The notes beneath the pieces are model-generated. The model did not search any database. It saw only the letters and a program-made list of their open reading frames with translations, and was not told the origin of the DNA. The position numbers and the translations under genes are program-made. Positions 7,246 through 45,491 of a stretch of DNA of 57,804 bases are shown one piece after another (positions within the stretch are counted from its first letter, which is position 1; each line of letters begins with the position of its first letter). The stretch is from Patescibacteria group bacterium (GTDB taxonomy: Bacteria; Patescibacteriota; Minisyncoccia; Phycocordibacterales; UBA12079): contig JAYEKM010000029.1 of the NCBI GenBank assembly GCA_034661035.1, forward strand, positions 1 through 57,804. The letters run 5' to 3'.

Positions 7246-7249
7246 TTTT

Positions 7250-7816
7250 TTATTCTAAACTATTTCTATAGGAAATAAGTCTTGGATCTATTCTAGCGGT
7301 CACACTAAAAACAACTCCACCGTCAAGCCCCACTCCTAAATCAGAAAAAATTAACTCATCCATGTTTTTATTTTCTCCAAAGACATCTGACTGTAAAGCA
7401 ACTGTTGCATAGGAATCAGCTGTGCCACTCATTGAAATAACCCATCTATCTTCCTCTGGATAGAAAGCCATTTCCTTGAAACTTACTTCTTGCAGAGTAT
7501 TTTGTTCTAGTAATTCAAACAGCGGAGTTAAAATAGTGTGTTTATCTAGAATCTTTTTAGCAGATTCTATCCGTTTATCTATTAAACTTAGTTCTTTTAT
7601 GATTTCCTTCTCGAGACTACCTTTTTCCCTATCCAAAATACTTGCCATATTTTCTATTTGACCTTCAAGATAACGATTGTAAAGAAAAACTGTTGAGGCA
7701 GTTAGAATCATCAAAATGAAAACTGCTACTCCAACCCCCATAAACAAACCACCAAAATCTTTCTTTTTAGTCTTCCTCCTTCCATGACTTTTTTTAGGAA
7801 TAAAAGATGTTTGCAT
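7250..7816 (-). CDS. PilN-like pilus assembly protein
   Basis: 188 aa, basic N-terminus, single TM, coiled coil. Directly downstream of pilM. Confidence 0.55.
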   Translation of the reverse strand: MQTSFIPKKSHGRRKTKKKDFGGLFMGVGVAVFILMILTASTVFLYNRYLEGQIENMASILDREKGSLEKEIIKELSLIDKRIESAKKILDKHTILTPLFELLEQNTLQEVSFKEMAFYPEEDRWVISMSGTADSYATVALQSDVFGENKNMDELIFSDLGVGLDGGVVFSVTARIDPRLISYRNSLE

Positions 7817-7933
7817 TAATAATATTATACATTAAAAAAGAAACCTTTACACAACAGAAATAAACAAAACTGTGGATAGAAAACAAAACAACCAGTCCTA
7901 ATTTAATTCTGTGTATTTTTTTAATTTTTATAT

Positions 7934-11711: not shown

Positions 11712-12800
11712 TCTGATACAATTTACCTATGAAAACTTTAAGCAAAAGACAAGTGATAATATTGGAATTTATAAAAAAGAACGGCAAAGCCAGTATTGGG
11801 GAGATTTATGGTTTTGTTAAGGAAGATTTTGAGGTAGATCAAAGAACAATCTCTAGAGATATTAAATTTATTTTAGATAAAAAATTGATATCTCAGACAG
11901 GGGCAGGACGAAATGTCTCTTACTTTATTTCTAGCCAAAATAAAATCTTAAAAGAAATTGATGTAGAAAAATATTTTTCTATTCCTTTTGATGAAAGAGA
12001 AGTTAAAACCAATTTTAATTTTGATATTTTTAATATTTTAAAAGAAGATATTTTTTCAGAAGAAGAACAAGAAAAACTTTTACAATTACACAATGATTTT
12101 TTAAATAATTTTTCTAAATATGACAGTCAAACACTTCTCAATAAGGAGTTTGAGAGGATTTTAATAGAATTTTCTTGGAAATCTTCACAAATTGAGGGTA
12201 ATACCTATTCACTTCTTAATACTGAACAACTTATTAAAGATAATAAGCCTGATAGTCAGAAAACAAAAGAGGAAACCCAAATGATATTAAATCACAAGGA
12301 TGCTTTTAATAAATCTTTACAAAATAAAGATGTTTTTGTTAAATTAACTCGCTCTAATATTGAACATATTCATCATCTTTTGACAAAAGACTTAAATATC
12401 TCTAAAAATATTAGAAAATCTCCTGTTGGGATAACAGGAACAAATTATAAACCTCTTGATAATGCCCACCAAATAGAAGAAGCTTTAGATAAGATGATAA
12501 AATTAATTAACAATAAAGAAAACTTTTTTGAAAAAGCTTTTTTGTCTTTGATATTACTTTCATATATTCAAGCCTTTGAAGATGGAAATAAGCGAACAGC
12601 TAGAATGATAGCCAATGCAATTCTGTTGTCATACAGATCTATTCCTATGTCATATAGAGCAGTAGACGAAGTAGAATATAAAAAAGCCTCTTTATTGTTT
12701 TATGAAATCAATAACCTAAATTATTTTAAAGAAATCTTTTTAAAACAATTTGAATTTGCCGTAGAAAATTATTTTAAATAAACAATAATACGATTTTCTC
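11584..12800 (+). mobile_element. Possible inserted HTH-Fic gene cassette bracketed by ~50-nt direct repeats
   Basis: Operator array plus the Fic ORF lie exactly between the two direct repeats. The right repeat is the immediate upstream region of tRNA-Ser. Confidence 0.35.
11729..12781 (+). CDS. Fic/DOC family protein with N-terminal winged-helix DNA-binding domain and degenerate active-site motif
   Basis: N-terminal DeoR-like HTH (RQVIILEFIKKNGKASIGEI...RTISRDIKFI). Inhibitory-helix motif SSQIEG. Fic motif region reads QAFEDGNKRTAR instead of HxFx(D/E)GNGRxxR. Confidence 0.8.
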   Translation: MKTLSKRQVIILEFIKKNGKASIGEIYGFVKEDFEVDQRTISRDIKFILDKKLISQTGAGRNVSYFISSQNKILKEIDVEKYFSIPFDEREVKTNFNFDIFNILKEDIFSEEEQEKLLQLHNDFLNNFSKYDSQTLLNKEFERILIEFSWKSSQIEGNTYSLLNTEQLIKDNKPDSQKTKEETQMILNHKDAFNKSLQNKDVFVKLTRSNIEHIHHLLTKDLNISKNIRKSPVGITGTNYKPLDNAHQIEEALDKMIKLINNKENFFEKAFLSLILLSYIQAFEDGNKRTARMIANAILLSYRSIPMSYRAVDEVEYKKASLLFYEINNLNYFKEIFLKQFEFAVENYFK

Positions 12801-24683: not shown

Positions 24684-26195
24684 TTATTCTAAAATTTCTA
24701 TTTCTTCTGATTGTTTTGTAAATTTTCTCAGTAATAAAAAGTATAAACAATAAACAATCACCATTAAATAAAACGGGAAGAAATTAACTTTGATAGAGGC
24801 AAAAGGTAGACTAGCAAAAATTTCTACCACCTTTAATTCGTAGGAAAGTAATAATTGAGTTATGTAAGAGAAAGGTAAAGCTAACCAGGTTGAAATAAAA
24901 ACAAACATCCCTGTTAAAAAACCAAATAACATGGTTAAGGGAATAAACATCAACACTAAAAGATTAACAAAGACAGCTACGATTGATAATTCACCCATCA
25001 TATAAAGTAACAAAGGTAAAACAAAAATTTGAGTAGAGATAGTTGCTAAAACAGTTTCTCTTAAATAAAACTTTTCTGGAACAAACTTAAAAAATTTATC
25101 TAATTTAGGTGCTAATAAAATCAAACCTAAAGTCGCCATAAAAGAAAGCTGAAAAGAGGGATCAAAAACCACTATATTTGGATTATGTAAAACCATAACA
25201 AAACCAGCCAAGAAAAGCGCTCTAGTCATGTCATTAACTCTACCAGTAGCCCTCGCAAAAATAACTAACAAAGCCATTATAGAAGCTCTTACAATTGTTG
25301 CTGAACCACCCACCATAACGGCAAACAAAACAATACTCAAGGCCCCTAAACTCATTCCTATAATTCTAGGAAAGAAGGAAAAGAGGCTCATAATAAATCC
25401 AGCAATAATCGCTACATTGTAACCAGATAAAACCACGATGTGAATTAAACCAACTTTTCTGAAATCATCTTGCAAGTCTTGACCAAGAGATTGTTTAGCC
25501 CCTACTAACAACCCACCTAACAAAGAAAGTTGGGGCTCTGGAATAATCTCCTTAATTTGTCCTAAAAAAACTTTTTTAAATGAAAATAGTTTTTCTTTTA
25601 CAAAGTTACCATTCCCTCCCGAAACAAGATTAACCTCTGGGTAAAATATTTGATAAAAAATATTATCTTTAGACAAATACCGAACATAATCAAATTCTCG
25701 ACCACCATCGGTGAAAAAATTTTTTGGTTTTTGTAGCACACCAGAAAATTTAATTTCATCTCCATATTCAAATTGAGGATAATGTTGAACTGTTAATAAC
25801 ATCTTAATATTTGTCTTGTTTAAATCAAGATTTTCTAGACTCAAGATTTTAACAACCAACTTTGTATTGTTTTCTCTTTCGTCAGGTTCATCCATAACAA
25901 TACCAGTCACAGAGACATTTTGATCTTCTAAATTATCTAACAACCAACTTTGTTGTGTTTCGTTTGAAAGTGAACATCTCAACAAACCAATACCAAAAAA
26001 CAACATTAGCAAAGAAATAAACAAAAAAAACTTCTTATCAGAAGTTTTTTGACCTATAAATAAAACTAATAACCAAACCATTATCGACAAAAAAATCCAG
26101 AAAAAACCGAAGTAGAAACCTAAATCCCAAAGAGAACAAAAAACTGTTCCAATTATAAAACTCAAAATAGAAAAATAGAAAAAAGAATACTTCAT
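24684..26195 (-). CDS. comEC: DNA internalisation channel ComEC/Rec2 (no beta-lactamase domain)
   Basis: N-terminal TM plus OB-like region. Competence-domain TM bundle with GLIHIVVLSGYNVAII. 503 aa. Confidence 0.8.
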   Translation of the reverse strand: MKYSFFYFSILSFIIGTVFCSLWDLGFYFGFFWIFLSIMVWLLVLFIGQKTSDKKFFLFISLLMLFFGIGLLRCSLSNETQQSWLLDNLEDQNVSVTGIVMDEPDERENNTKLVVKILSLENLDLNKTNIKMLLTVQHYPQFEYGDEIKFSGVLQKPKNFFTDGGREFDYVRYLSKDNIFYQIFYPEVNLVSGGNGNFVKEKLFSFKKVFLGQIKEIIPEPQLSLLGGLLVGAKQSLGQDLQDDFRKVGLIHIVVLSGYNVAIIAGFIMSLFSFFPRIIGMSLGALSIVLFAVMVGGSATIVRASIMALLVIFARATGRVNDMTRALFLAGFVMVLHNPNIVVFDPSFQLSFMATLGLILLAPKLDKFFKFVPEKFYLRETVLATISTQIFVLPLLLYMMGELSIVAVFVNLLVLMFIPLTMLFGFLTGMFVFISTWLALPFSYITQLLLSYELKVVEIFASLPFASIKVNFFPFYLMVIVYCLYFLLLRKFTKQSEEIEILE

Positions 26196-29014: not shown

Positions 29015-30463
29015 TCAAGGAACCTGAATAATTTTTACTTCCGAAAGACCTCCATATCCATATCGGTTATAACCTTGAACAGCAACGTAATACATTGCTC
29101 CGTGAGGCAAAACAAAAGACGCAGTTGTCTGTTGTTTGTCAAAAAAAATTTGATAGACATCCTTTTCTTCCTCGTTTAAAAAAGGAGTAAGAGAATAACA
29201 AAGAATATAACCCTCCGTGTCCGATGTTAACCAACCTAAATTGACAACTTGACCCTCAATATCAATATCCAGAGAGGGAAAACCAGGAGGACCCTTCAAC
29301 GGATGAATATCAACAACCATCGAAACATATTTGTTCTTTGTGTCGTCCCACTCCCAGAAAGAATCAAAAGATTCGACGGTATACCATCCATCAGAGGAAC
29401 CACCCCAACCAAAATTAAAGTGAACTTGATCCATCCCATCTACAGACCAATATCCGTCAGCGACATAAGCATGCCTATCCGATGAAAAAAAGACAGGTTG
29501 TCTTTTATTGATTTGTTCCTGAATTATCGGGAAAAAATTATCACGATAACTTATTATATCGTGAAGATCGTCGCTGTAACCTAAATACTCTGGAAGTCCA
29601 GCAACCAAACCAGCATAAAAACCAGAACTCTCTGTAGAGGAATAACATGTTTTCGCAAGAACTCCAACATCAGCCATTAACCGAGCGACTGCATCATTTT
29701 CTGGTGAGGGTTGTCCCTCAAACCAAGAATAAGAATCTATCATCAAGTTCCAGTAATATTCGTGAGAAAAATCTGCACAGATATATTGGTTTGTTCCACA
29801 ACTGATAGAACCAGAAAAATAATCATCGTAACATTTAGAACCAGAACCTACCTTTGGCCACTCCCAATATTTGAGAATCTGAGCAATGGCAGTTGCTACA
29901 CAACCTGTTACGGACCTTTCCCCGTTATTATCCAACGGACAGTAGTTGTTATAAGGAGTCTGTTGACTCCACGTTGTCTTCAATAAAGGACCAACCATTC
30001 CGCTAATAATATCATCAGTGGTAACAAAAGACCTTTTCTCAAGAAGTGTCCAAGCTTTATTGACCTGAAGGACTTGTTTTTTATTTGAAAGAGTGTGGAC
30101 AATAAATTTTGCTTGTCGGACAAGACTCTCAATAACCATAACCCCCATATCCATGGCAAGTTCAGAATTACTACTAAAACTTCCATCTTTACTCCAGGCT
30201 TTAATAGGTTCAAAGAGATCTTCCGTAGGAACAACTACAAAACCTCCACCAGAAAAATTAAATAGATAACCAATTGATTTACCCTTCTCGTCTTGAAGGA
30301 TTATTCCTTCATTAACAATTTTGTCTTCTCCGACTCGTTGCATCCATAACTCAGCTATAAGCCGAGCTTGCTGTAAAGAAACAAATTGAGCCTCTGATAT
30401 AGCAGCAACAGGAAATAAAAAAATAATCAATAGCAACGAAATTATCTTAACCTTTTCCATCAT
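29015..30463 (-). CDS. Secreted cysteine protease, peptidase family C10 (streptopain-like), with pro-region and C-terminal Fn3-like domain
   Basis: Signal peptide. Conserved block TTWSQQTPYNNYCP...VTGCVATAIAQILKYW (catalytic Cys). HAYVADGY (catalytic His). HFNFGWGG. The RBS AAAGGAG precedes ATG 30463/30460. Confidence 0.8.
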   Translation of the reverse strand: MMEKVKIISLLLIIFLFPVAAISEAQFVSLQQARLIAELWMQRVGEDKIVNEGIILQDEKGKSIGYLFNFSGGGFVVVPTEDLFEPIKAWSKDGSFSSNSELAMDMGVMVIESLVRQAKFIVHTLSNKKQVLQVNKAWTLLEKRSFVTTDDIISGMVGPLLKTTWSQQTPYNNYCPLDNNGERSVTGCVATAIAQILKYWEWPKVGSGSKCYDDYFSGSISCGTNQYICADFSHEYYWNLMIDSYSWFEGQPSPENDAVARLMADVGVLAKTCYSSTESSGFYAGLVAGLPEYLGYSDDLHDIISYRDNFFPIIQEQINKRQPVFFSSDRHAYVADGYWSVDGMDQVHFNFGWGGSSDGWYTVESFDSFWEWDDTKNKYVSMVVDIHPLKGPPGFPSLDIDIEGQVVNLGWLTSDTEGYILCYSLTPFLNEEEKDVYQIFFDKQQTTASFVLPHGAMYYVAVQGYNRYGYGGLSEVKIIQVP

Positions 30464-30610
30464 TGCATCTCCTTTCATTCGTAAAAGCTGAGAATTAATT
30501 TATACAAAAATATCAAAGTACAATACTTCTACATAGAATAGTATGGATAAAGATAAATTTTGTCAATAGATCGTTATGGTTCAATACCTATGCAACACTT
30601 TAATCGTGCA

Positions 30611-30758: not shown

Positions 30759-32222
30759 TCAACGGATCTCGAAAAGTCCGATATTGGAGTATTCACTACC
30801 TCCAATTAAATTATATGCCTGTATTGCGACAAAATAACTAGCACCAACCCAAAGATTGGCAGACATGGATGTTTGACTACCCCAATCAACCGTCACTATT
30901 GAACCAGGTCCTGTATAAGGAGCTGGTGCGTAAGAAAATAAATAACCAGTGGCTCCCGTCACGGGTTGCCACGAACAGTTAACGATAGTTCCATTGACGA
31001 CCACCTCCAACACCGGGGAATCAGGGGCACTATCAGCTGTTATAAAGTCAGGATAAATGTTGATTATCATCGTCACCCGACTAGAACTGTCATACGAAGC
31101 TCCCCAGAATTCATTTAATCCTTCAATTGTGTACCATCCATCCGATGAACCATCCCAACCAAAATTAAAATGAGTTTGATTCATACCAAGATCTTCCCGA
31201 AAACCATCAGCAACGTAAGCATGGTTACTAGAGCAAAAAAACACAGGGTAGCCTTTGTCTAGCTGATTCTTAATAGTTGAATAAGAACTACTCCAGGATT
31301 CATAAACTATCTCCACTTCATCACTATAACCCAAGTAGGTAGAAAAATCGTCCTCGTAAGGAAATGCTCCACTTCCAGAAGAGGAGTAATTAGTTTCAAA
31401 GATAATTCCTAAATCAGACATCAACGTGGCAACGGTATCAATTTCCTCGGCAGGCGAAGATTCCGTAAGGATATCTGGCATTTTATTCCAATTATAAACA
31501 TGCTCAAAATCAGCACATAAAGTCACTTCCGGATTATTAAGACAATCATAATTAGAACAATAAGAATAGCATTTACTTCCTGTTCCAGCTTCCGGCCATC
31601 TCCAATACCTTAATATCTGAGCCATGGCTGTACTTGTACATCCAGTGACAGAAAGTTCGCCATTGTCATTGTCTATAGGACAATAAGCGTTGTAAGGTTC
31701 ACGTTGTCCCCAAGTAGTTGTCAACAACGGACCAACAACCTGAGAACTTTCTTGCGCCCTTACCTCTCCTGGAGACAAAATCCGTCTCCACCCTTCATGG
31801 GCGTCTGTCAGGCTACTTTGGTAATTCGCCGAAGAAGCCCTTACGGTAACGAGAAAATGTTTTTGTCGTAGGAAACTTTTTTTAACCATAGTTTCCATGT
31901 CCATAGACCGCGAAGGGTCACCACGAAAGTGTCCCCTTCTACTCCAAGCCTTAACGGGTTCGAAAGTATCGTCCATAGGAACAACCACAAACCCTCCGCC
32001 AGAGAAACTGAACAGATAACCGATTGAGTTGCCCTCATTTTGAAGGGTTCTTCCTTCATCAACAACCCTATCTTCTCCAACCCTTTCCATCCAGTTTTCA
32101 GCCACAACCTGAGCCGTCTCAAAAGAAACAGGGGCAGCATTTACTGAACCAAAGTTAGAGAAAACAAAGAACATCGCAACAACCAGAACTACGAAAAAAC
32201 TACAACGTTTTGTCACTTCCAT
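30759..32222 (-). CDS. Secreted cysteine protease, peptidase family C10 (second, diverged paralog)
   Basis: Same blocks as the first: TTWGQREPYNAYCP...VTGCTSTAMAQILRYW, HAYVADGF, HFNFGWDG. C-terminal Fn3-like domain (GATGY). GGAGG lies 8 nt upstream of ATG 32222. The longer ORF-track start 32297 lacks an RBS. Confidence 0.8.
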   Translation of the reverse strand: MEVTKRCSFFVVLVVAMFFVFSNFGSVNAAPVSFETAQVVAENWMERVGEDRVVDEGRTLQNEGNSIGYLFSFSGGGFVVVPMDDTFEPVKAWSRRGHFRGDPSRSMDMETMVKKSFLRQKHFLVTVRASSANYQSSLTDAHEGWRRILSPGEVRAQESSQVVGPLLTTTWGQREPYNAYCPIDNDNGELSVTGCTSTAMAQILRYWRWPEAGTGSKCYSYCSNYDCLNNPEVTLCADFEHVYNWNKMPDILTESSPAEEIDTVATLMSDLGIIFETNYSSSGSGAFPYEDDFSTYLGYSDEVEIVYESWSSSYSTIKNQLDKGYPVFFCSSNHAYVADGFREDLGMNQTHFNFGWDGSSDGWYTIEGLNEFWGASYDSSSRVTMIINIYPDFITADSAPDSPVLEVVVNGTIVNCSWQPVTGATGYLFSYAPAPYTGPGSIVTVDWGSQTSMSANLWVGASYFVAIQAYNLIGGSEYSNIGLFEIR

Positions 32223-32357
32223 TTTTATTACCTCCTTTTTTAAATTGTAAGGCTCAAGACCTTTTATTTTAGGTTTAAAATTATATGTAATTCTCAAAGA
32301 ACTACACTCCTATAAAAAGGATAGGATTAAACAAGAAAATTGTCAAGTGTATGAAGT

Positions 32358-34304: not shown

Positions 34305-37300
34305 TTAAATAGGTTCATAAATAGGTATAGTTTGATCTGAAGTTATAGTTATATTAACAGGAGCTATTCCGTTACCAAAAATGGTAATCATTTTCTCACC
34401 AGTAAACCTGTAGGAAGCAAAAATCTTTAAAATTGACCCTAGACTATCCGTGAAGTAATCAGCAAAAGAGAGAGTCTCTGGAGTAAATGTAGCTGTATTA
34501 GTTGTCTCTTCTCCTGGAGATTCAGGTAAGCTTGATAGATCTGCTGTAAAAGAAACATCATTCCGGTAACCATTCCAAGAAATAACTTCAATGTCAATTC
34601 CTGGTTCAGTTTCAACACCTCCTCCAGCAAAGTCAGCTTCTACTTCGGTAGGTGTAGCAAATAAATTAAAGTAGGCAAGAGGCTCAAACGTAGCTGTGTC
34701 TTCGTAGCTTAATTCATGATAGCAAGTAAGAGTATAAACTGTTTCTTCGAGAATAATTTTGTCAATTAAATAATCTCCTACAGAGGCACAAGTAGCTTCA
34801 GAAGAACAAACATTTGTCTGGCTATAACCTGTGTCACTTTCTAAATCACACCTAACTACATTTTGTGTCTGCCACTCAGCAATCGGTTTGAGACCTGTTC
34901 TTTGGTTATGAACGTTGAAACTACCTGAAATTATCTCTGGAGGATCTACGACAACGGTAATTAAATCTGTTGAACAATTAGTTGTTCCTCCGTAACCTGT
35001 AAATGAACCTGTGTAGGTAATATCTTGAGTCTCTGTTACAGATGGATAATCCTCGACACTACCACTAGCCAGCGGAGAAATAGAACCTACCCCACGGTTA
35101 ATTGAAGCTGAATTAGTGTAATTTGAAGTCCAAGATAATGTCGTACTATCACCTAAGAAAACAATATCTTCTGATGAATTCAAGGTGCAGGTTGGAGAGT
35201 GAGGTGTAACAACAACACCTCCGTTACCAGCCCCTGCATCAGTACTACAAGTCCCCACCTCACCTCCATCTGAATCATCTTTTACAGTAAAAGTACAAAC
35301 CTCTGTCGCGGCTGGTCCATAAGGGAAATTAAAGACAACAGCTGGACTAGCTGGGCTATTCAAAGGAATTGAACCATAATCAGCACCGCCGGCAACAGGA
35401 CCTGTACAAGAATATTTTATATCAGAGGCGTAGGTTGAACTCCAAGTCAATATACTTGAACCAGGAGATGTAACAGAAGTAGGGTTAAAAGCAGCTGTAC
35501 AGATAGGACAATCTTTTACCCCTGGAACTTCTCTCGTCGTACCACAATTACTTGTCTGCGTCAGAGTAGTTCCCTCACAAGTGGTGCTAGCAGCTGGTTC
35601 CCATATCGTTGGAACACAACAATTTTTTGTTCCTGTAGCTGTCCGAGTTGTTCCGCAATTACTTGTCTGGGTAAAATTATCTCCACTACACTCAGAGGAT
35701 GTAGGAGGAGACCAGCTTGATGGAGTACAACCACCACAATTCTTTGTTCCTGTAGCTGTCCGAGTTGTTCCGCAATTACTTGTCTGGGTAAAATTATCTC
35801 CACTACACTCAGAGGATGTAGGAGGAGACCAGCTTGATGGAGTACAACCACCACAATTCTTTGTTCCTGTCGCTCCCCGAGTAGAACCACAATCACTTGT
35901 CTGAGTAAAATCATCTCCATCACACACAGAAGCCGTAGAAGGTGACCAACTTGATGGGGTACAAGATGTCGTACTAACGATTACAGTAGAGTTACTTCCA
36001 CAGGTAGCAGTCTTACCAGCGCTATCAGCTACAGTTATAGTACAAACCTGATTTCCAGTTTGATTTACATCAAAAGAAAGTGTTGCTGAACCAGAAACAG
36101 GTAAACCACTAGCCGCTGCTGTAATGGGTCCAGTACAAGCGTAACTTGCTGAAACAGCATTGCCACTCGAATACCAAATGGCTGTGCTAGAACCAGGAGC
36201 AACAACATTGTAATTAGACCAACTTAAATTACAAGAAAGTTCTTCAGCAGAATTGATAACCAAACTGTCAAAACACGAATATTCTTTACCAGAACTACTT
36301 ACTGCAGTTACTTTAAGTAATATCTGTTTGTAATTTTTAATTACATTCTTCAAATCACCTGACAATCCTGTTGCTGTTGCAAGATTAACAGTTAAAGGCT
36401 GAACAATCTTTAATGAAGAATTTGCATTTTCAGATGCCCACTTAAAATAAATTGAATCACCAACTTTAACACTTGACACATCTTGTCCTGATGAATTAAC
36501 CCAACTTACACTACAGGTAGGATTTGCTGGAGGACTAGTTGGATCTATTCTTAGAGTATCATCACACGAATATTCAACTCCATTGCTATTTTTCACAGTG
36601 ATGACACATTTTTCAGTTCCGGGGTTATCAAAAGTAAAAGGATAGGATCCGTTTGGATTAATTGAACCCCAACCATCATTCCAAGACAGCACTCCTGAAC
36701 AAGAATATTTAGCTGAAACGGCGTTAGAAGAGGAGCTCCAAGTAAGAGTGCTTGAATCACCAGTTTTTATTCCCCCATCATTATCATCCCACTCAACAGT
36801 ACAAGAAGGGGTCTGATCTGCCACAGTATATGTATAATCTTTGGAACCTATATACTTGAAGGTAGGAGTATATGAAGGACAACTAGGTCTACCCCAAATA
36901 TCATTGTAAGAACAAGAACTACACACTGGATAAGGTGGGGGTGACTTAATGTTAACGCACATACAACTCATACCTACCATACCACTGTCTACCTCATATT
37001 TTATATCGCAATTAGCACTTGGGTAATTATCAAATCCCCATTCCTCATCTAAACAACTACCAAGTGGCATTAATTGTGTCGCTGAATTTAAACAATAAGA
37101 AGACATATCATAAACACTTTCATTCGCATAAAATTTTAGAGTAATTGTATGTGTTCCTGGTGTTGTCGATTTAGTAGTATTTACTGGCGAAACCTGCGAC
37201 CTAACTTTTGTGGTAGGATTTTCATACATGGTTTTACCAACAGAAACACCGTCATGGAATACTTCAATATAACCGTCGTCGAGATTTAAATAAGCGTTAT

Positions 37301-38750
37301 TACACCCACCCGAAGTCAATTGTTGCAAACTAACAGGAACAGGATTGGAATTCATGTTTATACTATAAGTAAAAAATGCTCCATAACCATTACTACTATT
37401 AGGAATAGCCCCTGCCCAAGAAGCCGCGTTTACATCCTTAGCACCACCTAACAACATAGTTGTACCTATCAGTACAAGGAATAAAGCAGTATTTTTAATT
37501 TGTTGGAAAACATCATCTTGTTTTCTCCTTTTTCTAAACAGATATAGACCATAAAAAACAAGAACTACTATCACAACAAAAGTAATTAAGAAATATGAAT
37601 CCTTTTTTCCATTTTTAATACTCAAAATCGCTTCATCTAAAATTTGCTCTTCAGACTTAATTAGCAGCGAAACCTTAGGATCCTGACATCTTTTTAAAAT
37701 AGGGACACTGACAGAGGCTAACCCAAATGAATTATCATTAGGAGTGTAGTAAAAACGGTCAGAACAACCATCAATAACACCCTCAATAACAACATCATCT
37801 AATTTGGTTCCCATACCAAGCCTTGAATCTTGAAAATCATCAGCTGAAGGAGTCCAGAGAAAAGAAACTTCTGCTAAATCCCCTTCCAAGTAATACCCGC
37901 TATCCAATTTAATATTATGAACAGTAGCGCTCCCTCCTCTGACAACATAATGTATGGCAATTGAATTAGAGGTTATCTTTTCACCATTATCGTTTAAACC
38001 AGACAAAGATACTTTAGTGTCATAAGCTTGGGGTATTTCAGGCTTAGGTATAACAAAAGAAATCATCTCAATTCCCTCAGATTCAATGTTATTAGTCCCA
38101 TTTAAATTATCTTCATTAACAAAAACAATTTCCCCAAAAGTTGACCTTCTGTGAGTCTCGAAAATCGGTTCAAACTCTACTTTTTCTGGAGTAAGATTAC
38201 TAACTCTACAATTTAATACAAGAGTTTCTTCGGGAGCAACATCAACACCTTGTCTAATATTATAATTTTCTCCATTTCCTTCCCCAACAATTAAATAACA
38301 AGAATCGTTGACAATGTTAAGATACTCACCTGTTCCGTCTAAGACGATATCTCCAACATTATTAATAGCAACAGGAAGACCAGCTTCATTTCTAGCAACA
38401 ATTTCCAAACCGTAGGTTCCTCGCAAAAAAGCAGGGGCTGAATATTTTAAATCTCTAGAAAGAGTTTCCATTTCTCCGATATCTAACACCTCTGTATAAA
38501 CTTTCTCATCAATAGTACCCCCATCTTCTATTAGCCGAATTCCATATTTTATGCCCGACTGAGCCCCTTCTCCATTAGTTATGTCAAAGGAGACACTTAT
38601 GTCATTATCTTCATAAACCAAAACAGGATTACGAATTTCAATATCAACAGAAACCCAATCTTGTGCTTGAACTGTAAGACAAGCTGACCAAACAACCAAA
38701 AGAGACAGCGTAAATGCAACCCTTTCTATAAATCTAAAATTTTTTTTCAT
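34305..38750 (-). CDS. Giant (1481 aa) Cys-rich multi-repeat surface protein with internal TM pair and conserved C-terminal module
   Basis: Signal peptide, then a ~385-aa ectodomain, then a TM, RKRRK and a second signal-like hydrophobic segment (AKDVNA/AS). After that come about five ~90-aa Ig-like repeats with a conserved Cys pattern and four 39-aa Cys repeats. The last ~210 aa are shared with the 44271-45491 protein. Confidence 0.8.
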   Translation of the reverse strand: MKKNFRFIERVAFTLSLLVVWSACLTVQAQDWVSVDIEIRNPVLVYEDNDISVSFDITNGEGAQSGIKYGIRLIEDGGTIDEKVYTEVLDIGEMETLSRDLKYSAPAFLRGTYGLEIVARNEAGLPVAINNVGDIVLDGTGEYLNIVNDSCYLIVGEGNGENYNIRQGVDVAPEETLVLNCRVSNLTPEKVEFEPIFETHRRSTFGEIVFVNEDNLNGTNNIESEGIEMISFVIPKPEIPQAYDTKVSLSGLNDNGEKITSNSIAIHYVVRGGSATVHNIKLDSGYYLEGDLAEVSFLWTPSADDFQDSRLGMGTKLDDVVIEGVIDGCSDRFYYTPNDNSFGLASVSVPILKRCQDPKVSLLIKSEEQILDEAILSIKNGKKDSYFLITFVVIVVLVFYGLYLFRKRRKQDDVFQQIKNTALFLVLIGTTMLLGGAKDVNAASWAGAIPNSSNGYGAFFTYSINMNSNPVPVSLQQLTSGGCNNAYLNLDDGYIEVFHDGVSVGKTMYENPTTKVRSQVSPVNTTKSTTPGTHTITLKFYANESVYDMSSYCLNSATQLMPLGSCLDEEWGFDNYPSANCDIKYEVDSGMVGMSCMCVNIKSPPPYPVCSSCSYNDIWGRPSCPSYTPTFKYIGSKDYTYTVADQTPSCTVEWDDNDGGIKTGDSSTLTWSSSSNAVSAKYSCSGVLSWNDGWGSINPNGSYPFTFDNPGTEKCVITVKNSNGVEYSCDDTLRIDPTSPPANPTCSVSWVNSSGQDVSSVKVGDSIYFKWASENANSSLKIVQPLTVNLATATGLSGDLKNVIKNYKQILLKVTAVSSSGKEYSCFDSLVINSAEELSCNLSWSNYNVVAPGSSTAIWYSSGNAVSASYACTGPITAAASGLPVSGSATLSFDVNQTGNQVCTITVADSAGKTATCGSNSTVIVSTTSCTPSSWSPSTASVCDGDDFTQTSDCGSTRGATGTKNCGGCTPSSWSPPTSSECSGDNFTQTSNCGTTRTATGTKNCGGCTPSSWSPPTSSECSGDNFTQTSNCGTTRTATGTKNCCVPTIWEPAASTTCEGTTLTQTSNCGTTREVPGVKDCPICTAAFNPTSVTSPGSSILTWSSTYASDIKYSCTGPVAGGADYGSIPLNSPASPAVVFNFPYGPAATEVCTFTVKDDSDGGEVGTCSTDAGAGNGGVVVTPHSPTCTLNSSEDIVFLGDSTTLSWTSNYTNSASINRGVGSISPLASGSVEDYPSVTETQDITYTGSFTGYGGTTNCSTDLITVVVDPPEIISGSFNVHNQRTGLKPIAEWQTQNVVRCDLESDTGYSQTNVCSSEATCASVGDYLIDKIILEETVYTLTCYHELSYEDTATFEPLAYFNLFATPTEVEADFAGGGVETEPGIDIEVISWNGYRNDVSFTADLSSLPESPGEETTNTATFTPETLSFADYFTDSLGSILKIFASYRFTGEKMITIFGNGIAPVNITITSDQTIPIYEPI
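35510..35977. repeat. Four tandem 117-bp (39-codon) repeats, the central two identical
   Basis: 35626-35742 and 35743-35859 are identical by eye (period 117: tcctgtagct at 35631 and 35748). The flanking copies are diverged. They encode CTPSSWSPPTSSECSGDNFTQTSNCGTTRTATGTKNCGG. Confidence 0.85.
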
Positions 38751-38864: not shown

Positions 38865-40619
38865 CTATTTATTTCCTAAAACGTCATCAATAGAAACTAA
38901 ACCTTGCACTGCTTTAAAAAAAGCTTCTTCTCTTAATGTTAAAGTTCCCTCTTCTTTTACTTGTTTTTCAATTTTGTCTAAGGGAACTTTTTCCCTCAAA
39001 AGTTCTCTGGTCGCAGGGCTAACCCTTGATATCTCATTTATCATAATCTTTTCAGTACTTTTGCCTTTTGATTTGAAAAATTTTACTTCTGACCACGGTT
39101 GTTCGCTCAATAGAATATTCTCATTAACTAGAGCTACCATGACCTTATTTAGATCAACATACCTAGAAATACTCTTAATTTCAGAAACACTTAAATAATA
39201 CTCCTTTTTTTCCTCAGGAAGTCTGGGTATCATTTTCTGCAGGATAACTATCTCTAAACCATTTATTATTAAAGTAGAATCAATTTTAGAGGATGAGGTC
39301 ATTTTATAGACAACATCTGATGAGGATCTTGCTTTCATCTCAACGACAGACAGAGCTAATCTATCTTCATTCACAATACTAGATAATTTCAAAAGACTTG
39401 AAATAGATTTATTTGAATTTAAATCTTTTAAACCATCCACTGCGACAACATCACAATCCTGTTTAGCTAAATTATTTATCCCTTCTGAGACGCCAAAACC
39501 TATTTCTGAATTAATTACTACCTGACTTATTCCTGACATCTGGAAACCAATTGAATCTTCAACTGTCCCAATACTAAGACTGGGGTCTTTTAATATATCT
39601 AAAATCGTGTAAAAAGTAGTCGTCTTACCGGATTGTTTCCCGCCAGCAATCAAGATCATACCTTTCTTTCTACCTAAAACCTTATATAGCAAATCAAGTC
39701 CTTCTCCGTGAAAACCAGCTGCTTCTAGGGAAAAACCTGAATCACCTTTTCTTAATATATTTAAAACAGATTTCTCTCCCCATGAAGAAGGAATTACATG
39801 TATTTTGAGATCAATTTCTCTCCCATCAAAACCTACTTGGAAACGACCATTTTGACATAAGTTATCTGTATCTAATCTCAAATTAGCTAGCGTTTTAATT
39901 TTCAAAGCCAGAAAAGTAGCCGATCTTTTAGGTAATACCATTGCTGAATACAGACTACCATTTATCCTATACCTAATTAAAACATTATCCTCTTGAGGTT
40001 CTATATGGATACTAGAAACATTTTGAATCAAAGCGTGTTTTAAAAGCAATTCAAAAACTGAGTTTACTTGCTTACTTCTGGCTAATTCCAGTATTGATTC
40101 TCTGGGTAATTTCTTTAGTGTACCATTTGGAATAGTTTGGAAAGAAAGAGAGCCTTTTTGGATCATTGCCCCATATTCATTTTTTAGCATTCCTTGATAC
40201 TGTGAAATTGCCTTATTTAAAGAATCTTTATTGGTCAAATAAGGAACTACCTTTAAACCAACCATTTTCTTTAGAAAATCAACTTTTTCTAAACTGTCTA
40301 AATCCAAAACAGCAACTTTTAAGGATTTCTCATCTCTATCAAAGGCAATTATGTTATGTCTCCTTGTAATTGGTTCCGGTATGGTAGAAAGAATAGCCCA
40401 ATCAATTTTTTGTTTACTCAAATCAACGAAAGGAATCCCTGACACCTTTGACTGTAAACTCTGTAAATCTTGTTCGTTAAGAATTCCTTTCCTTATTAAA
40501 ATATCACATGATCTAAGTTTTTTTTCCTCTGCTTCTTTCACAGCCAAATCAAAATCATCCTGGTTTACTAAACCAAGTTCTAAAATTAAATCTTCTACTT
40601 TGTTTTTATCTATAAACAT
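38865..40619 (-). CDS. PilB/GspE-like protein with degenerate ATPase core
   Basis: GspE N-domain and P-loop GGKQSGKTTT are retained. Where PilB has DVIMVGEIRD this protein has DVVAVDGLKD, and where PilB has TGHLVFSTIHTN it has EDRLALSVVEMK. Confidence 0.75.
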   Translation of the reverse strand: MFIDKNKVEDLILELGLVNQDDFDLAVKEAEEKKLRSCDILIRKGILNEQDLQSLQSKVSGIPFVDLSKQKIDWAILSTIPEPITRRHNIIAFDRDEKSLKVAVLDLDSLEKVDFLKKMVGLKVVPYLTNKDSLNKAISQYQGMLKNEYGAMIQKGSLSFQTIPNGTLKKLPRESILELARSKQVNSVFELLLKHALIQNVSSIHIEPQEDNVLIRYRINGSLYSAMVLPKRSATFLALKIKTLANLRLDTDNLCQNGRFQVGFDGREIDLKIHVIPSSWGEKSVLNILRKGDSGFSLEAAGFHGEGLDLLYKVLGRKKGMILIAGGKQSGKTTTFYTILDILKDPSLSIGTVEDSIGFQMSGISQVVINSEIGFGVSEGINNLAKQDCDVVAVDGLKDLNSNKSISSLLKLSSIVNEDRLALSVVEMKARSSSDVVYKMTSSSKIDSTLIINGLEIVILQKMIPRLPEEKKEYYLSVSEIKSISRYVDLNKVMVALVNENILLSEQPWSEVKFFKSKGKSTEKIMINEISRVSPATRELLREKVPLDKIEKQVKEEGTLTLREEAFFKAVQGLVSIDDVLGNK

Positions 40620-40644: not shown

Positions 40645-41199
40645 TTATATTTCAATTTCCAAAGGAACGTCTAGTGCATCCTCTATTATAATTGGGGTAA
40701 ATTGAATTATCACTTCTTCTGCACTAAATTGTTTTGCATCCTTAATATCTTCTTTAGCTGTTACAGTTATTTGTTGACCAACTTTCAAGTCACTGAAGAT
40801 AACATCTTGTTTGTTAAACATTTCTGGAGGAAAAATCGGTTCTATCATTACTTCAGGATTTTCCATCTGTGCTTTTATCTTCTCATCAAACTCCTTCATC
40901 TCCTGCTGATACTGTGCTTGGTCCTTTTCTACAAATTTGTAAAACTTAGCCCCAGTTGTTTCAATAGTCCTTATATCTGAGCTACCAACAGAAGTTGGAT
41001 ATAATGGATAAATTTTCAAAACGATTTTATCACCGTTTATCTCTTGGATATCACCACTAATAGTCATTATTTCCATATCTTCTATACCCGGCATTGCTAC
41101 AAACCCTTCTTCATTATTTGACGGAACAGCCATTCCTAAAATAAAAAATATGAGGGCTGTGATTAAAATTATTACGACTTGGTTCATTTTTTTTCGCAT
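40645..41199 (-). CDS. Membrane-anchored hypothetical protein
   Basis: N-terminal TM and an acidic 150-aa ectodomain. Confidence 0.55.
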   Translation of the reverse strand: MRKKMNQVVIILITALIFFILGMAVPSNNEEGFVAMPGIEDMEIMTISGDIQEINGDKIVLKIYPLYPTSVGSSDIRTIETTGAKFYKFVEKDQAQYQQEMKEFDEKIKAQMENPEVMIEPIFPPEMFNKQDVIFSDLKVGQQITVTAKEDIKDAKQFSAEEVIIQFTPIIIEDALDVPLEIEI

Positions 41200-41267: not shown

Positions 41268-43841
41268 CTATTTACTTTTAAGTAGCTTAATCTCATTTTT
41301 TAATTCATCAATTTGTTTTTGCTGTTCTTTTATTGCCTCAATCAATGGAGCTACTAAATTACTATATTGAATTGATTTTAATCCTGTTTCTTCATCAGTC
41401 ATTACTAATTCTGGGTAAACTTTTTCTACATCTTGAGCAATCAAACCAATATTAACACTATCACCCCGCGCTTCTTCATCCTTCCACTTAAAAGATACTC
41501 CTTTTAACTGCAATATCTTACTTAACGAACTATCCAATTCTGCAATATCTTTTTTAAGTCTTATATCTGAACTAATAGTATAACTACCTGTAGTAAGATG
41601 TCCATAATTATAGATATTGTCAGAAACAATATAGTTCAACCTATTTGTGCTGGCTGGGTCAAGATAATAAGCATGATAGTCACTATCCACAAATTTAGTA
41701 GCATAATGAGGGGAACTAGTCGTTAAGGTAAGTGTTACAGAATCTGAAGTGCCTCCCCCTGTTAGTCCTGTCCCCGCAACGACAGCTGTTATGTCACCAG
41801 AACCTGCGTTTACACAAGAAAAAGTCCCTTGGGCTGAGTTTATATTTTGCACAACTTGACCAACAGAACAGGCTCCTGTTAATTTTTTTTGAATAGAAGT
41901 AAGATACTGTCCACTAACAGAAATACCATTCAGATACAGAATGTTTAAATAAGAAGTACCATCCATATCCAAAAGATAACTGCTCGGATTATTTCGATCA
42001 CGGAAAATAGTCGCTCTCAGATCACTAAAAGCAGAAACACTGGATGGATCAACGTAATAACTAGTACTGTTAGCGTCATATTCCCTACCATTGTAACCAT
42101 AACTTCTATAAACATAAGTTGCACTACTTCCTCTTGCTGTTACTGTTGCTAATGTGTCTGACTCTGAAGTTATCCCTGCACTCGGCCAGCTACTTCTATA
42201 AACACCACCAAGAGTAATACCATTTACCGTAAGAGCGTTAAATCTAGAAGTACTTGCTGGGTTTGCGTAGTAATTTGTATCATTATAATCATAAAAGATA
42301 GGAGATCGAATATCTGAATAGCCATAAACTCTATCTGCAGCAACAGTATTTAACCTAGAGGTACTCGCTGGATCAAGATAATAACCAGTATTATCCCAAT
42401 CATGAATTTTGTCTGCGATATATATATCTGAAGTATTGTCTGATGAACTGCTTCCAACATATAAATCATTATAAGCATAAATACGACTTAATATAGAAGT
42501 AGAAGCTGGGTCTACATAATAACCAATGTTATTTTGATCATAAAAAATAGGGGCTCGCATAGAAGCATCAGCTCTAAAATATCCTGCTGTATACATATTT
42601 CCTGAACCATATATCTGCCAACTACCTGGACTAGAAGCACTCCCTAACCTAATTCCATTAACATTGACCATCTCTCTATTACCAGCACTGTTTCCTTGAG
42701 CTAAAACTTCATTTAATGTTTGGTCATCTGACGATGAAGGACAATAGGTACCGTTTTGACGACAAACATTTTGCCCCCCCGAAACAACGTTAGAGGCAGT
42801 AAGCGTACCACCAACAGTTACACCGGCTGAAGTCGTTGTCAATCTAGTAGCTCCATTGTACATTGCATAAAAAGGTCCATTTCTAGTACCATAATAAATC
42901 CACTCATTATCGCGGTCATTATATCCACCAATATGACTACTATGCATCATGAGTGTTACGTAATTAGCATAGTTCATCCCGCTCCAACCGCCTCTTGTGC
43001 CAGATATTTGCCATGAACCATAATTAGAACTAGTATTTGGATAAAAATGTGCTCCGTTCACACTCGTTGAATACAAACCATACCCTCTTACATCAAGCCA
43101 GCTACCAAGTCTTCCGTAATTAGAACCACCTTGCTGTAACTCAAAACCATTGTTTAATCTTAAAACACTAACTTCTTTAACAGCATGATTATTCATATCC
43201 AAATCTTGTGTAGCTGAATGATTCCCAAGATTATCTGCTCCTGATGGCCAAGCTGAAAGAGACACACCACCAAGATTTATTGTACCTACTTTCAGAGTAT
43301 TTGGAATATAGACGTTATTTGCTCCACTGGTAGCAGAATCGTTAACTGACATAACTAAAGTACTCATATTGTAATCATTATAGAAACGAATACCGTTGTA
43401 ACTAGCGTTGGCTCCTAGTTTTATCCCGGTATGGAAAGCTATTCTTAAATCAGGGTAGGGAGAAGTCCATGATCCTGATTCTCTATAGATAGCATAAGCA
43501 CTACTCATTCCACTAGCAAAATACATTCCGTAAGGATGATCTGTAGATACACCATAATTATTAGCTAAATAAAAAGAACCTAACTTATTGGTGTATGAAG
43601 TACTACTAGGATCAATGTAATAACTTGTACTTGGGTAGTCGTAATAGACAGGGGACCTCATATCTGTATTTGATTGCAAAGAACCTTGTTTTAGTTGGAA
43701 GTTAGCTCCAACATTAAGTGGTTCTGAAGTATTAGAAGAAGGTGGGTTAGCTGTTGGTCCTGTCCAAGCTGATACCAAACTAAAGTAAATTATGAAAGCT
43801 ACTGCTGATAGGATTATTATTTTTGTTGTCTTGATTTGCAT
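41268..43841 (-). CDS. Tail-fibre-like secreted fibre protein with C-terminal S74-type intramolecular chaperone (autoproteolytic) domain
   Basis: Signal peptide MQIKTTKIIILSAVAFIIYFSLVSA (alternative upstream ATG at 43883). Repeated YYxDPxSTS motif. The last 100 aa read SDIRLKKDI...GVSFKWKD...IGLIAQDVEKVYPELV...coiled coil. Confidence 0.75.
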   Translation of the reverse strand: MQIKTTKIIILSAVAFIIYFSLVSAWTGPTANPPSSNTSEPLNVGANFQLKQGSLQSNTDMRSPVYYDYPSTSYYIDPSSTSYTNKLGSFYLANNYGVSTDHPYGMYFASGMSSAYAIYRESGSWTSPYPDLRIAFHTGIKLGANASYNGIRFYNDYNMSTLVMSVNDSATSGANNVYIPNTLKVGTINLGGVSLSAWPSGADNLGNHSATQDLDMNNHAVKEVSVLRLNNGFELQQGGSNYGRLGSWLDVRGYGLYSTSVNGAHFYPNTSSNYGSWQISGTRGGWSGMNYANYVTLMMHSSHIGGYNDRDNEWIYYGTRNGPFYAMYNGATRLTTTSAGVTVGGTLTASNVVSGGQNVCRQNGTYCPSSSDDQTLNEVLAQGNSAGNREMVNVNGIRLGSASSPGSWQIYGSGNMYTAGYFRADASMRAPIFYDQNNIGYYVDPASTSILSRIYAYNDLYVGSSSSDNTSDIYIADKIHDWDNTGYYLDPASTSRLNTVAADRVYGYSDIRSPIFYDYNDTNYYANPASTSRFNALTVNGITLGGVYRSSWPSAGITSESDTLATVTARGSSATYVYRSYGYNGREYDANSTSYYVDPSSVSAFSDLRATIFRDRNNPSSYLLDMDGTSYLNILYLNGISVSGQYLTSIQKKLTGACSVGQVVQNINSAQGTFSCVNAGSGDITAVVAGTGLTGGGTSDSVTLTLTTSSPHYATKFVDSDYHAYYLDPASTNRLNYIVSDNIYNYGHLTTGSYTISSDIRLKKDIAELDSSLSKILQLKGVSFKWKDEEARGDSVNIGLIAQDVEKVYPELVMTDEETGLKSIQYSNLVAPLIEAIKEQQKQIDELKNEIKLLKSK

Positions 43842-43863
43842 ATGTTTTTTATTAATTATATTT

Positions 43864-44253
43864 TTAATCAATGTAAGTATCATCAGAAATAAAAATGGAT
43901 TCCGGACCCTCTAAGTTTTCATTAAAATCTGGCACTGTTTTTTCAGAGGGTGACATATAAGTTTCTTGTGGGGAAGAAACTGATTTAGGTTTCGTAGAAA
44001 CAATATCCTCAGATAAAGGCAACTCTTGATGTTCTTCTGCAGGAACAACCTCCTTAATACTTTCAGAAGAATAGATATCTCCAGGAGAAGGAATATATGT
44101 ATCATGAGAAATATTATATTCTTGTATGTCAGGGTCTGAACTCCTAGTCAAAACTCCTACTACTGCAAAAAATATTAACAAGATAATTAACAAGAATAAA
44201 ACAACTATAATTACCCTTAATTTATTATTTTGATTACTTTTGTTATTCACCAT
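43864..44253 (-). CDS. Small membrane-anchored hypothetical protein
   Basis: N-terminal TM and a Ser/Pro/Glu-rich tail. Confidence 0.5.
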   Translation of the reverse strand: MVNNKSNQNNKLRVIIVVLFLLIILLIFFAVVGVLTRSSDPDIQEYNISHDTYIPSPGDIYSSESIKEVVPAEEHQELPLSEDIVSTKPKSVSSPQETYMSPSEKTVPDFNENLEGPESIFISDDTYID

Positions 44254-44270: not shown

Positions 44271-45491
44271 TTAAATTTCTTCATAAACTGGCTCGATATT
44301 TCCAGCATCAATGATTATACTAACTGGGTACAAACCATTTCCTTCAACAGCGACTGTTTTCTGACCGATAAAGTGATACGAAGCAAAAACTTCTAATGCA
44401 GACCTTGTACCAGCTGTAAAATATTCAGCAAAAGACAAACTCGGACGAGAGAAAATAGCTAGATTAGTAGTTCCGTCTCCAGGAGATTCTGGTAGTTGAG
44501 ATAAATCAGCTGAGAAAGAGATATTACTATTAAAACCATTCCAAGAAGTCACTCCTATTAATGATACTGGTGTAGTAGTTGCTCCTCCCCCAGAGAAATC
44601 GATTGTAACCCGATTAGGACTTCCATTTAATTCAAAATATCTCAAAGGAGTGTGTGTTTCTGTGACACTCATCCCTATATCATTAAAACATGTTATGGTA
44701 TAAGTTGTTTCTTCCATCACAGCCATATCTACAAGTAAATCCATTTCTTCACATTGGTTTTCATTATGACAAACGTCTAAATCTTCATAACCAGTATCGC
44801 TCACTAGGTCACAGGAAACAACATGTTCTGTCTCCCAGACAGCTCTAGGTCTATTACCAGTCACAACACTAGCCACTTGGAAAGTACCTAGCCTTATCAC
44901 AGGAAAGTCACCTATAAATTCTACCCCTCCATAGGCAGGATTGAAGTCAACCCAACCAACAACTTCACCAGCCCAAGCATAACCTTCAAAAAAATTAGTG
45001 TTCTCGTTAAGGACAACTCCGTAATTTATACTATCTGTAGTTTGTTTACTTAAACTTATCCAACCATCCCAACCATCGTCAGCATTCATTCCAGCCAGAG
45101 CTTTAGCCCAGCCGTTTAATTCTAAACCATTTAACTTTGCTCGACAGACCCCCGTCGGACACCCGCTCAGCTCGTTCTCATTAAAACTAATCCAACCGAC
45201 ATTATCACTCCAAGCATAGCCAGATAATTTTTTATCAGCTCCAATACTAACCCCATAATTGGATGTACTACAAGTATCTGGGTCAATACAATTAAAACCA
45301 ATCCAACCAATGTTATCACTCCAGGCATAGCCAGATATATTATCATTAATTGCTGCTTTAGCCACAGGTAAAGCATAGTCACTCTGCCCTCCCTTTTCAC
45401 CAAAACTGTAAGCTATTAACAATAATAAAAATAGAATAATTAAAACCAGTACCCAGTTTTTAAAAAATTTGTTTTTTATTATTTGTTCCAT
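44271..45491 (-). CDS. Secreted repeat protein (GYAWSxNxGWIxFN repeats) with the shared C-terminal module
   Basis: Signal anchor. Three repeats: SGYAWSDNIGWIGFN, SGYAWSDNVGWISFN, EGYAWAGEVVGWVDFN. The C-terminal ~210 aa are collinear with the end of the 1481-aa protein. Confidence 0.7.
   Translation of the reverse strand: MEQIIKNKFFKNWVLVLIILFLLLLIAYSFGEKGGQSDYALPVAKAAINDNISGYAWSDNIGWIGFNCIDPDTCSTSNYGVSIGADKKLSGYAWSDNVGWISFNENELSGCPTGVCRAKLNGLELNGWAKALAGMNADDGWDGWISLSKQTTDSINYGVVLNENTNFFEGYAWAGEVVGWVDFNPAYGGVEFIGDFPVIRLGTFQVASVVTGNRPRAVWETEHVVSCDLVSDTGYEDLDVCHNENQCEEMDLLVDMAVMEETTYTITCFNDIGMSVTETHTPLRYFELNGSPNRVTIDFSGGGATTTPVSLIGVTSWNGFNSNISFSADLSQLPESPGDGTTNLAIFSRPSLSFAEYFTAGTRSALEVFASYHFIGQKTVAVEGNGLYPVSIIIDAGNIEPVYEEI

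Follow-up and report, generated by a model that had tools for sequence, protein, structure and literature searches.

How do Patescibacteria, ultrasmall and probably symbiotic bacteria, attach to other cells? Host recognition and binding in this group are largely unknown, with type IV pili (T4P) and a few adhesins implicated so far (PMC12206443). The question is raised anew by a 57,804-nucleotide contig of a Patescibacteria group bacterium (JAYEKM010000029.1, assembly GCA_034661035.1; hereafter the window), in which a minus-strand open reading frame (ORF) at 41268–43883 encodes a protein built like a phage tail fibre, in the midst of chromosomal genes. Herein we describe this protein as what is probably a Sec-exported, self-cleaving trimeric surface fibre serving adhesion or host recognition, which makes it a candidate for the means by which these cells attach to others. 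The open-access literature on Patescibacteria, the candidate phyla radiation (CPR), Saccharibacteria and DPANN yielded no paper describing S74 or tail-fibre proteins in CPR, an absence that is no proof, and such proteins are not mentioned in two key functional papers on Patescibacteria surfaces (one of them PMC12206443).

The fibre gene and its C-terminal domain

A preliminary description of the locus, made from the DNA alone, had reported an 871-residue fibre with an N-terminal signal peptide instead of a domain for attachment to the virion, a C-terminal Peptidase_S74 domain with its serine in an SDxRxK context, and six clear plus one degenerate copies of a YYxDPxSTS motif. All of these features were recovered, including the ORF itself (871 residues plus stop from the first ATG), and the one correction concerns the start codon. 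The gene caller behind the protein database begins the protein at M15 (position 43841), homologs agree with that choice, and the codon sits 22 nt past the stop of the upstream gene; the real coding sequence is therefore probably 41268–43841 (minus strand, 857 residues; numbering below counts from the first ATG unless a model of the 857-residue form is meant). With the start placed at M15, the protein opens with a textbook Sec-type signal peptide, MQIKTTKIIILSAVAFIIYFSLVSA (43767–43841, minus strand, 25 residues), in which a basic n-region, a 16-residue h-region and small residues at −3 and −1 of a predicted signal peptidase I site (VSA|W) could be read directly from the sequence, without a dedicated predictor. 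The same segment forms a confident helix (residues 2–20) in the AlphaFold2 (AF2) model.

The S74 intramolecular chaperone/autoprotease domain occupies 41271–41570 (minus strand, residues 772–871). The Pfam model Peptidase_S74 (PF13884) matched residues 772–827 over profile positions 1–57 of 58, with 68.4 bits against a cutoff of 22 (E=6.7e-19), so the profile search suggested in the preliminary description gave a strong match. The S-D-x-x-x-K Ser/Lys motif, defined as catalytic in earlier work (PMC10769870), is intact as SDIRLK (S772-D-I-R-L-K777), and exactly 100 residues run from Ser772 to the C-terminus. A sequence search of the PDB recovered the S74 region of gp37 of phage S16 (6F45, E=2.8e-7) and, weakly, MyRF. 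In the AF2 model of the full-length 857-residue monomer, the predicted local distance difference test score (pLDDT) exceeds 90 at residues 760–857, which end in a terminal 30-residue helix (826–856), and apart from this domain and the signal helix no part of the model is confident. Foldseek matched the S74 model to the intramolecular chaperone autoprocessing (ICA) domain of MyRF (7DC3, E=1.2e-5, TM-score 0.69 on the target) and to the chaperone of the K1F endosialidase (3GW6, probability 0.96). The fibre is predicted to cut itself between S771 and S772 through a Ser772/Lys777 dyad, which would free a fragment of 100 residues.

Upstream of this domain, the motif YY.[DN]P.S[TV][SN] matches six times, at residues 88, 455, 501, 538, 609 and 739, where about 1e-4 would be expected by chance; only 4 of 20,000 composition-preserving shuffles held one match or more. 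The full repeat unit spans about 26 residues, [SD][ML]RAPIFYDSNNTGYYVDPASTSxLN, and was counted 419 times across 120 homologs. All copies in the fibre lie on the minus strand: unit 1 at 43581–43658 (residues 76–101, RSPVYYDYPSTSYYIDPSSTSYTNKL), unit 2 at 42480–42557 (443–468), unit 3 at 42342–42419 (489–514), unit 4 at 42231–42308 (526–551), unit 5 at 42018–42095 (597–622), a degenerate unit at 41943–42023 (621–647, DLRATIFRDRNNPSSYLLDMDGTSYLN) and unit 6 at 41628–41705 (727–752), directly before the S74 domain.

A lineage-specific module behind the signal peptide

Directly after the signal peptide comes a 30-residue element, hereafter the N-module (WTGPTANPPSSNTSEPLNVGANFQLKQGSL; 43677–43766, minus strand, residues 40–69), with the consensus WTxPTxxPPxxNxxxP[IL]NxGxxxQxKxGxL, which we propose to be a docking or anchoring element. 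The fibre carries the family pattern W-x-x-P-x-x-x-P-P-x-x-N-x-x-x-P-[ILV]-N-x(4-5)-Q-x-K-x-G right behind its signal peptide, and the A/G|W junction at that point was seen in all members of the family. When 1.84 billion proteins were searched with a 39-column profile of the module (A2; E<=1e-3), at least 6,006 cluster representatives were retrieved, the match lying always at about residues 20–65, and the fibre was the top match (76.8 bits, residues 23–61). The S74 domain was present in only 18 of the top 150 matches; most N-module proteins measure 190–350 residues and have diverse, often Cys-rich C-termini. The shortest members with S74 consist of a signal peptide, the N-module, one GNVGIGTxxPxxKL loop and the S74 domain. 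Neither Pfam nor NCBIfam holds a model of this family.

The family appears to be specific to Patescibacteria. Among 187 S74-bearing ORFs from fetched loci (given below by their L numbers), the N-module was found in 19 of the 36 from CPR genomes and in none of the 151 others (88 viral, 23 Bdellovibrio-like, 7 DPANN and 33 other bacterial), and tblastn with residues 15–75 of the fibre matched CPR loci only. Every organism name recovered for N-module matches belonged to Patescibacteria: the member listing of 10 N-module protein clusters gave a single name, Ca. Kaiserbacteria, and a search with consensus-like sequences returned 37 short matches only, all the named ones being Patescibacteria. A homology search with a 47-residue alignment of the module produced 22 candidates, none of them scoring. 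The fibre belongs to a large, lineage-specific family.

N-module genes with and without S74 also occur in tandem arrays of two or three (L085:9171-13268, L083:3-3451, L121:16756-20137 and L096:8996-11828), which suggests local duplication and diversification. Those that lack S74 often adjoin genes for Laminin_G_3 or Kelch proteins. In L164:7001-10009 and L162:7001-8082, N-module ORFs of 89–90 residues precede Laminin_G_3 ORFs of 909 and 231 residues after gaps of ~10 nt and ~110 nt, respectively, and these pairs may represent genes that were split or frameshifted, or else true two-part systems.

A mosaic body shared with phage fibres

Of the 120 best homologs, most begin like phage fibres and lack a signal peptide, and at least 550 relatives were found in IMG/VR, with matches starting at about query residue 45–60, past the N-module. 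One of them, in L004, is a fibre of 3,273 residues flanked by genes for tail-fibre assembly, sheath, tube and baseplate hub. The repeat unit was present in 34 of the 88 viral S74 ORFs, and identical units occur in genuine myovirus fibres.

Two further modules make up the front of the body. Module A (43227–43634, minus strand, residues 84–219, containing SAYAIYRESGSWTSPYPDLRIAFHTGIKLGANASYNGIRFY) is a small beta-rich globular domain common to phage fibres and present in 90 of the 120 homologs; it is 65% identical over 117 residues to the giant myovirus fibres of L003–L005, against 55% for the best CPR copy. Its AF2 model is confident (mean pLDDT 82.7); Foldseek returned nothing significant for it in PDB or BFVD (E>0.01, TM<0.45), and no PDB sequence matched a profile of it. 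Module B (42807–43232, minus strand, residues 218–359, NLGNHSATQDLDMNNHA...LQQGGSNY...) is 85% identical to its counterpart in L001 and thereafter 40–50% identical to viral fibres, its best match otherwise; it occurs also in the homologs P0022 and P0041. Scans of four body segments with Pfam at E<=10, and with NCBIfam, returned only noise.

The S74 domain has a different affinity. With every set pre-selected for similarity to the query, its identity to CPR copies has a median of 59% (maximum 80%) and to DPANN copies a median of 60%, compared with a median of 44% (maximum 57%) for viral ones. Judged by sequence similarity, the protein is thus a mosaic, in which the N-module and the S74 domain are of CPR type and the body modules most resemble myovirus fibres. 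The modules are also reassorted over short distances, as the close relatives L001, L002 and L146, with a NusA identity of 85–87%, differ in their sets of body modules.

Short S74 proteins of 187–290 residues with an N-terminal membrane or signal segment were also seen in DPANN-labelled metagenome-assembled genomes (L108:9578-10288, L104:1660-2388, L123:9533-10303, L144:9758-10318, L118:4870-5430 and L106:16-879). There a motif of their own, ...YA..P.PGH....ID[FL]S, replaces the CPR N-module, and their S74 domains are as near to that of the window as the CPR ones are (about 60%). Such proteins could point to a toolkit that ultrasmall episymbionts either share or have arrived at convergently.

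A conserved chromosomal cassette between NusA and TIM

We scanned the approximately 50 ORFs of the window with Pfam, PHROGs and NCBIfam, and Pfam and PHROGs found no capsid, terminase, portal, sheath or tube gene anywhere in the 57.8 kb. The fibre and its cassette neighbours lie on the same strand, and the shared strand and short gaps are what a putative operon would be drawn from; a scan for promoters and terminators gave counts not above those of shuffles. The closest homologs with a signal peptide (P0002 in L001 and P0003 in L002) have identical neighbours in identical order. When species-representative genomes were scanned and the genes then mapped, the arrangement of NusA, a GYAWS protein, a ~100-residue transmembrane protein, the S74 protein, a secreted or transmembrane protein of 160–350 residues and a PilB-type ATPase, with TIM further on, proved to be kept in L002, L085, L146, L094, L152, L092, L114 and L097. 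NusA identity to the window ranges from 60 to 87% among these, the contigs reach 205 kb, and the S74 proteins in the slot measure from 187 to 871 residues.

Because the arrangement recurs across Patescibacteria species, we regard the S74 gene as a stable resident of a chromosomal surface/T4P neighbourhood and not as a prophage leftover. The preliminary description had noted the lack of phage structural genes, had named discovery of a surrounding prophage or tailocin as the finding that would overturn it, and had read the protein as a domesticated fibre. Both the lack of phage genes and the chromosomal, non-prophage setting hold, and what has to be given up is the idea of a one-off domestication, since the fibre belongs to a large family with a conserved module behind the signal peptide.

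The cassette opens, divergently from nusA, with the gene for a 406-residue protein with GYAWSxNIGWI repeats (44271–45491, minus strand); this protein is 58–60% identical to its counterparts in L002 and L146, and homologs adjoin the S74 gene in 12 further loci. Next, upstream of the fibre, comes a 129-residue single-pass membrane protein (43864–44253, minus strand) with an acidic, Pro-rich extracellular tail and, by the positive-inside rule, a predicted N-in/C-out topology. No other neighbour accompanies the S74 gene so constantly, and a protein of this kind (~100–135 residues) nearly always precedes that gene elsewhere (L085, L146, L094, L152, L114, L097, L101, L091 and L124). Its tail repeats read PxPTNVPPLEE in the window's clade and L-T/S-x-E-Q-K/R-x-x-h-h-x-x-L in others.

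Directly downstream of the fibre lies the gene for a 184-residue membrane-anchored protein (40645–41199, minus strand), 44–48% identical to the products of same-position genes in L001 and L002 and with weaker homologs in L083, L109 and L140; a metagenome scan anchored on it gave one distant match, on a 1.7-kb contig. It is followed by a PilB-like ATPase paralog (T2SSE plus MshEN; 38865–40619, minus strand) with degenerate catalytic motifs. The Walker A motif reads GGKQSGKT (its Lys is Arg in L002) and the Asp box EDSIG, while the protein has kept neither the Walker B Glu nor the two histidines of the His box nor the Arg fingers. Since these motifs are degenerate and yet the sequence is conserved between species (48–61% identity among the window, L002:7022-8773 and L085:16323-18143), the protein looks like a conserved pseudo-ATPase. 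The syntenic ATPase is canonical in L094, L152, L114 and L092, and in L094 and L152 this canonical PilB is followed, by Pfam, by PilC (T2SSF, 185 bits) and N_methyl pilins.

A secreted giant protein of 1481 residues (34305–38750, minus strand) closes the cassette before TIM/PGK. It and the 406-residue GYAWS protein have no Pfam match and hold in common a C-terminal domain of ~200 residues, which is ~49–53% identical to the domain in the L002 and L146 proteins. In many other CPR loci the gene immediately downstream of S74 belongs to an unannotated secreted family with the motif C-x-x-V-T-N-x-S...F-[VI]-P-T-x-T-x-x-E-W-x-x-F (L152:10329-10970, L114:10369-11442, L101:6961-7677, L089:10684-11553, L083:3459-3989, L109:4945-5463 and others), which is absent from the window.

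Proposed function and alternatives

In the mechanism that we favour, the 25-residue signal peptide would be removed at VSA|W, baring the 30-residue N-module, which would hold the fibre on the cell surface with the upstream single-pass protein and the downstream membrane protein as candidate anchors. Outside the membrane, the S74 chaperone domain would set three chains in register from the C-terminus and cleave itself at Ser772 by means of the Ser772/Lys777 dyad, leaving a mature fibre of 732 residues per chain that consists of RAPIFYD...YYxDPxSTS repeats together with small globular modules. Ligand binding would fall to this modular body, which is exchanged with phage fibres and would most likely attach to a host (basibiont) cell or another surface.

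Several points weigh against this adhesive fibre. Many members of the family are minimal (187–230 residues, with a mature part of ~70), which fits a structural or scaffold role equally well, and most N-module proteins lack S74 and stand in unrelated chromosomal contexts. Retention at the surface would depend on an N-module that matches no known fold or partner, trimerisation and cleavage are argued by analogy with Bd3182 of Bdellovibrio and with phage proteins, and the episymbiotic lifestyle of the organism is assumed from its phylum. The AF2 monomer of the body, for its part, is uninformative (pLDDT <50), with no readable fold.

Two alternatives deserve weight, each of them unlikely in our judgement. 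The fibre could be a component or cargo of a T4P-like apparatus, for example a fibre on or beside the pilus whose display depends on the adjacent PilB-type ATPase. In L094, L152 and L114 the S74/N-module gene heads a run of genes on one strand that includes PilB, PilC (T2SSF) and N_methyl pilins, a PilB paralog follows the S74 gene in the window, L002 and L085, and the authors of PMC10769870 have raised a possible interplay between T4P and the related Bdellovibrio fibres discussed below. Against this, the fibre has a Sec signal peptide and not a prepilin (N_methyl) leader, the neighbouring ATPase of the window is without the Walker B Glu, His box and Arg fingers, the functional T4P cluster lies 30 kb off (188–9094), and the linkage could merely be inherited gene order.

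With about the same low probability, the protein might be an envelope structural element, such as an S-layer-like or spacer fibre, in which the N-module and S74 form the functional core and long bodies are optional decoration. The minimal members, with one capping loop between N-module and S74, occupy the syntenic slot in L097, L101, L094 and L089, and the N-module family is very large and consists mostly of short proteins. The body of the window's protein, however, consists of modules known from receptor-binding phage fibres, and close relatives carry them in shuffled sets, as is typical of ligand binders under diversifying pressure and not of scaffolds.

A secreted tailspike-like enzyme, one that would break down a host capsule as a polysaccharide depolymerase (an endosialidase, for instance), is much less probable still. 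S74 domains were first described on endosialidases and one tail spike family is among the PHROGs matches, but neither Pfam (E<=10, four segments) nor the PDB sequence search found a glycosidase, lyase, beta-propeller or pectate-lyase domain in the body, which is built of the fibre repeats common to long tail fibres. Least credible, and largely refuted, is the remnant tail fibre of a degraded prophage or tailocin: the C-terminal ~130 residues do match 1,078 phage genomes and 26 PHROG tail families and the body modules reach 65% identity to myovirus fibres, but the 57.8 kb hold no phage genes, a signal peptide and CPR-specific N-module stand where a virion-attachment N-terminus would be, the S74 domain is nearer to CPR than to viral copies, and the NusA–TIM slot is conserved in species with NusA only 60% identical.

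Beyond the adhesive surface fibre itself, a wider and decidedly more tentative possibility is that it forms the variable, phage-derived host-recognition part of an undescribed, Patescibacteria-wide and T4P-linked surface system. The N-module would then dock Sec-exported proteins, S74-matured trimers as well as thousands more, on the surface or pilus, and swaps of phage modules would re-target the cells to new hosts.

As a secreted modular fibre that matures itself and has receptor-binding modules in common with phages, the protein would be a testable candidate determinant of host range, encoded in a cassette conserved across CPR classes. With the N-module as a marker, the secreted surface proteome encoded by CPR genomes can be catalogued. 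Should the fibre be merely structural, the annotation would still be useful, as the present NCBI label is only 'tail fiber domain-containing protein'.

Comparison with known systems

The closest described system is that of the mosaic adhesive trimer (MAT) fibres of Bdellovibrio bacteriovorus, S74 subgroup (Caulton et al. 2024, PMC10769870). These have a signal peptide and a conserved N-domain, are located at the surface and act in prey handling; self-cleavage of S74 has been shown for Bd3182 (S782A mutant) and for phage proteins (PMC10769870). Like MATs, the fibre is chromosomal and non-prophage and combines a signal peptide, a family-specific N-terminal element, a long mosaic phage-like body and a C-terminal S74 domain with SDxxxK. 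In both families some members keep the N-terminal element without S74, and both organisms are said to live on other bacteria, which for the Patescibacterium is assumed from its phylum. The N-terminal elements differ: a 30-residue W-T-x-P-T-x-x-P-P... module here and, as described for MATs, a ~130-residue beta-rich domain there, and the CPR N-module was found in 0 of the 23 S74 ORFs of Bdellovibrio-like genomes. The MAT capping-loop motif V-G-G/N-x-x-x-P-x-x-x-L has no match in the fibre and occurs in 18 of those 23 and in 19 of the 36 CPR S74 ORFs, while the RAPIFYD...YYxDP repeat of the fibre's body is absent from Bdellovibrio-like loci. Unlike MATs, the fibre sits in a conserved T4P-adjacent cassette, and its envelope is presumed to be monoderm. 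By this comparison the fibre may be called MAT-like, with two features of MATs, the N-domain and the capping loop, missing, and it would extend the MAT concept of cellular organisms that live on other cells and use phage-type fibres to a second, much larger lineage.

The long tail fibres of marine and freshwater myoviruses (L003–L005 from IMG/VR, with a partial match to Synechococcus phage DSL-LC03) have the same ~26-residue repeat, module A and S74 terminus. They are far longer (2,400–3,900 residues), have virion-attachment N-termini without a signal peptide and are encoded beside sheath, tube, baseplate and fibre-assembly genes. Phage homologs begin MALTKVTGDF..., MATIVTRAGKGSPLTN... or MALLKFKRSAVPAKVP..., and the N-module was found in 0 of 80 viral loci.

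Known S74/ICA proteins (K1F endosialidase 3GW6, T5 pb1, S16 gp37 6F45 and MyRF 7DC3) resemble the fibre in the last 100 residues, the predicted fold, the Ser-Lys motif and the long terminal helix. In contrast to them, the protein described here would be Sec-exported, and its passenger is a repeat fibre without an enzyme domain; given Sec export, the S74 domain must here fold and cleave outside the cytoplasm.

PilX2 of Saccharibacteria (T4P minor pilins/tip adhesins, PMC12206443) is likewise a candidate host-binding surface appendage encoded with T4P genes. Unlike PilX2, the fibre has neither prepilin leader nor N_methyl motif and is not a pilin. A search with the N_methyl model (PF07963) had matched the three pilins at 188–1560 and not the fibre, and a pilin identity was ruled out.

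Other features of the window

The window has a GC content of about 33% and carries housekeeping genes: RecG, FtsH, SmpB with tmRNA, RNase H, RecJ, HIT, PGK, TIM, NusA, pyrophosphatase, trigger factor, ClpP, RNase Y and MscS, together with four tRNAs. This gene content, the GC value and the closest relatives mark the window as part of a Patescibacteria (CPR) chromosome. A complete T4P cluster at 188–9094 (minus strand) comprises three N_methyl pilins (188–1560), PilC, a PilT-like ATPase, PilB, PilO and PilM, and ComEC is encoded at 24684–26195 (minus strand). T4P and ComEC form the usual competence/pilus toolkit of Patescibacteria, which here lies apart from the fibre cassette. Two Peptidase_C10 (streptopain-like) genes with Inhibitor_I69 pro-domains stand in tandem at 29015–30478 and 30759–32297 (both minus strand), in a stretch of raised GC (0.37–0.39, compared with about 0.33 elsewhere). 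Lastly, an ORF at 11729–12781 (plus strand) joins a Penicillinase_R (BlaI-like repressor) domain and a Fic/DOC domain in one protein.

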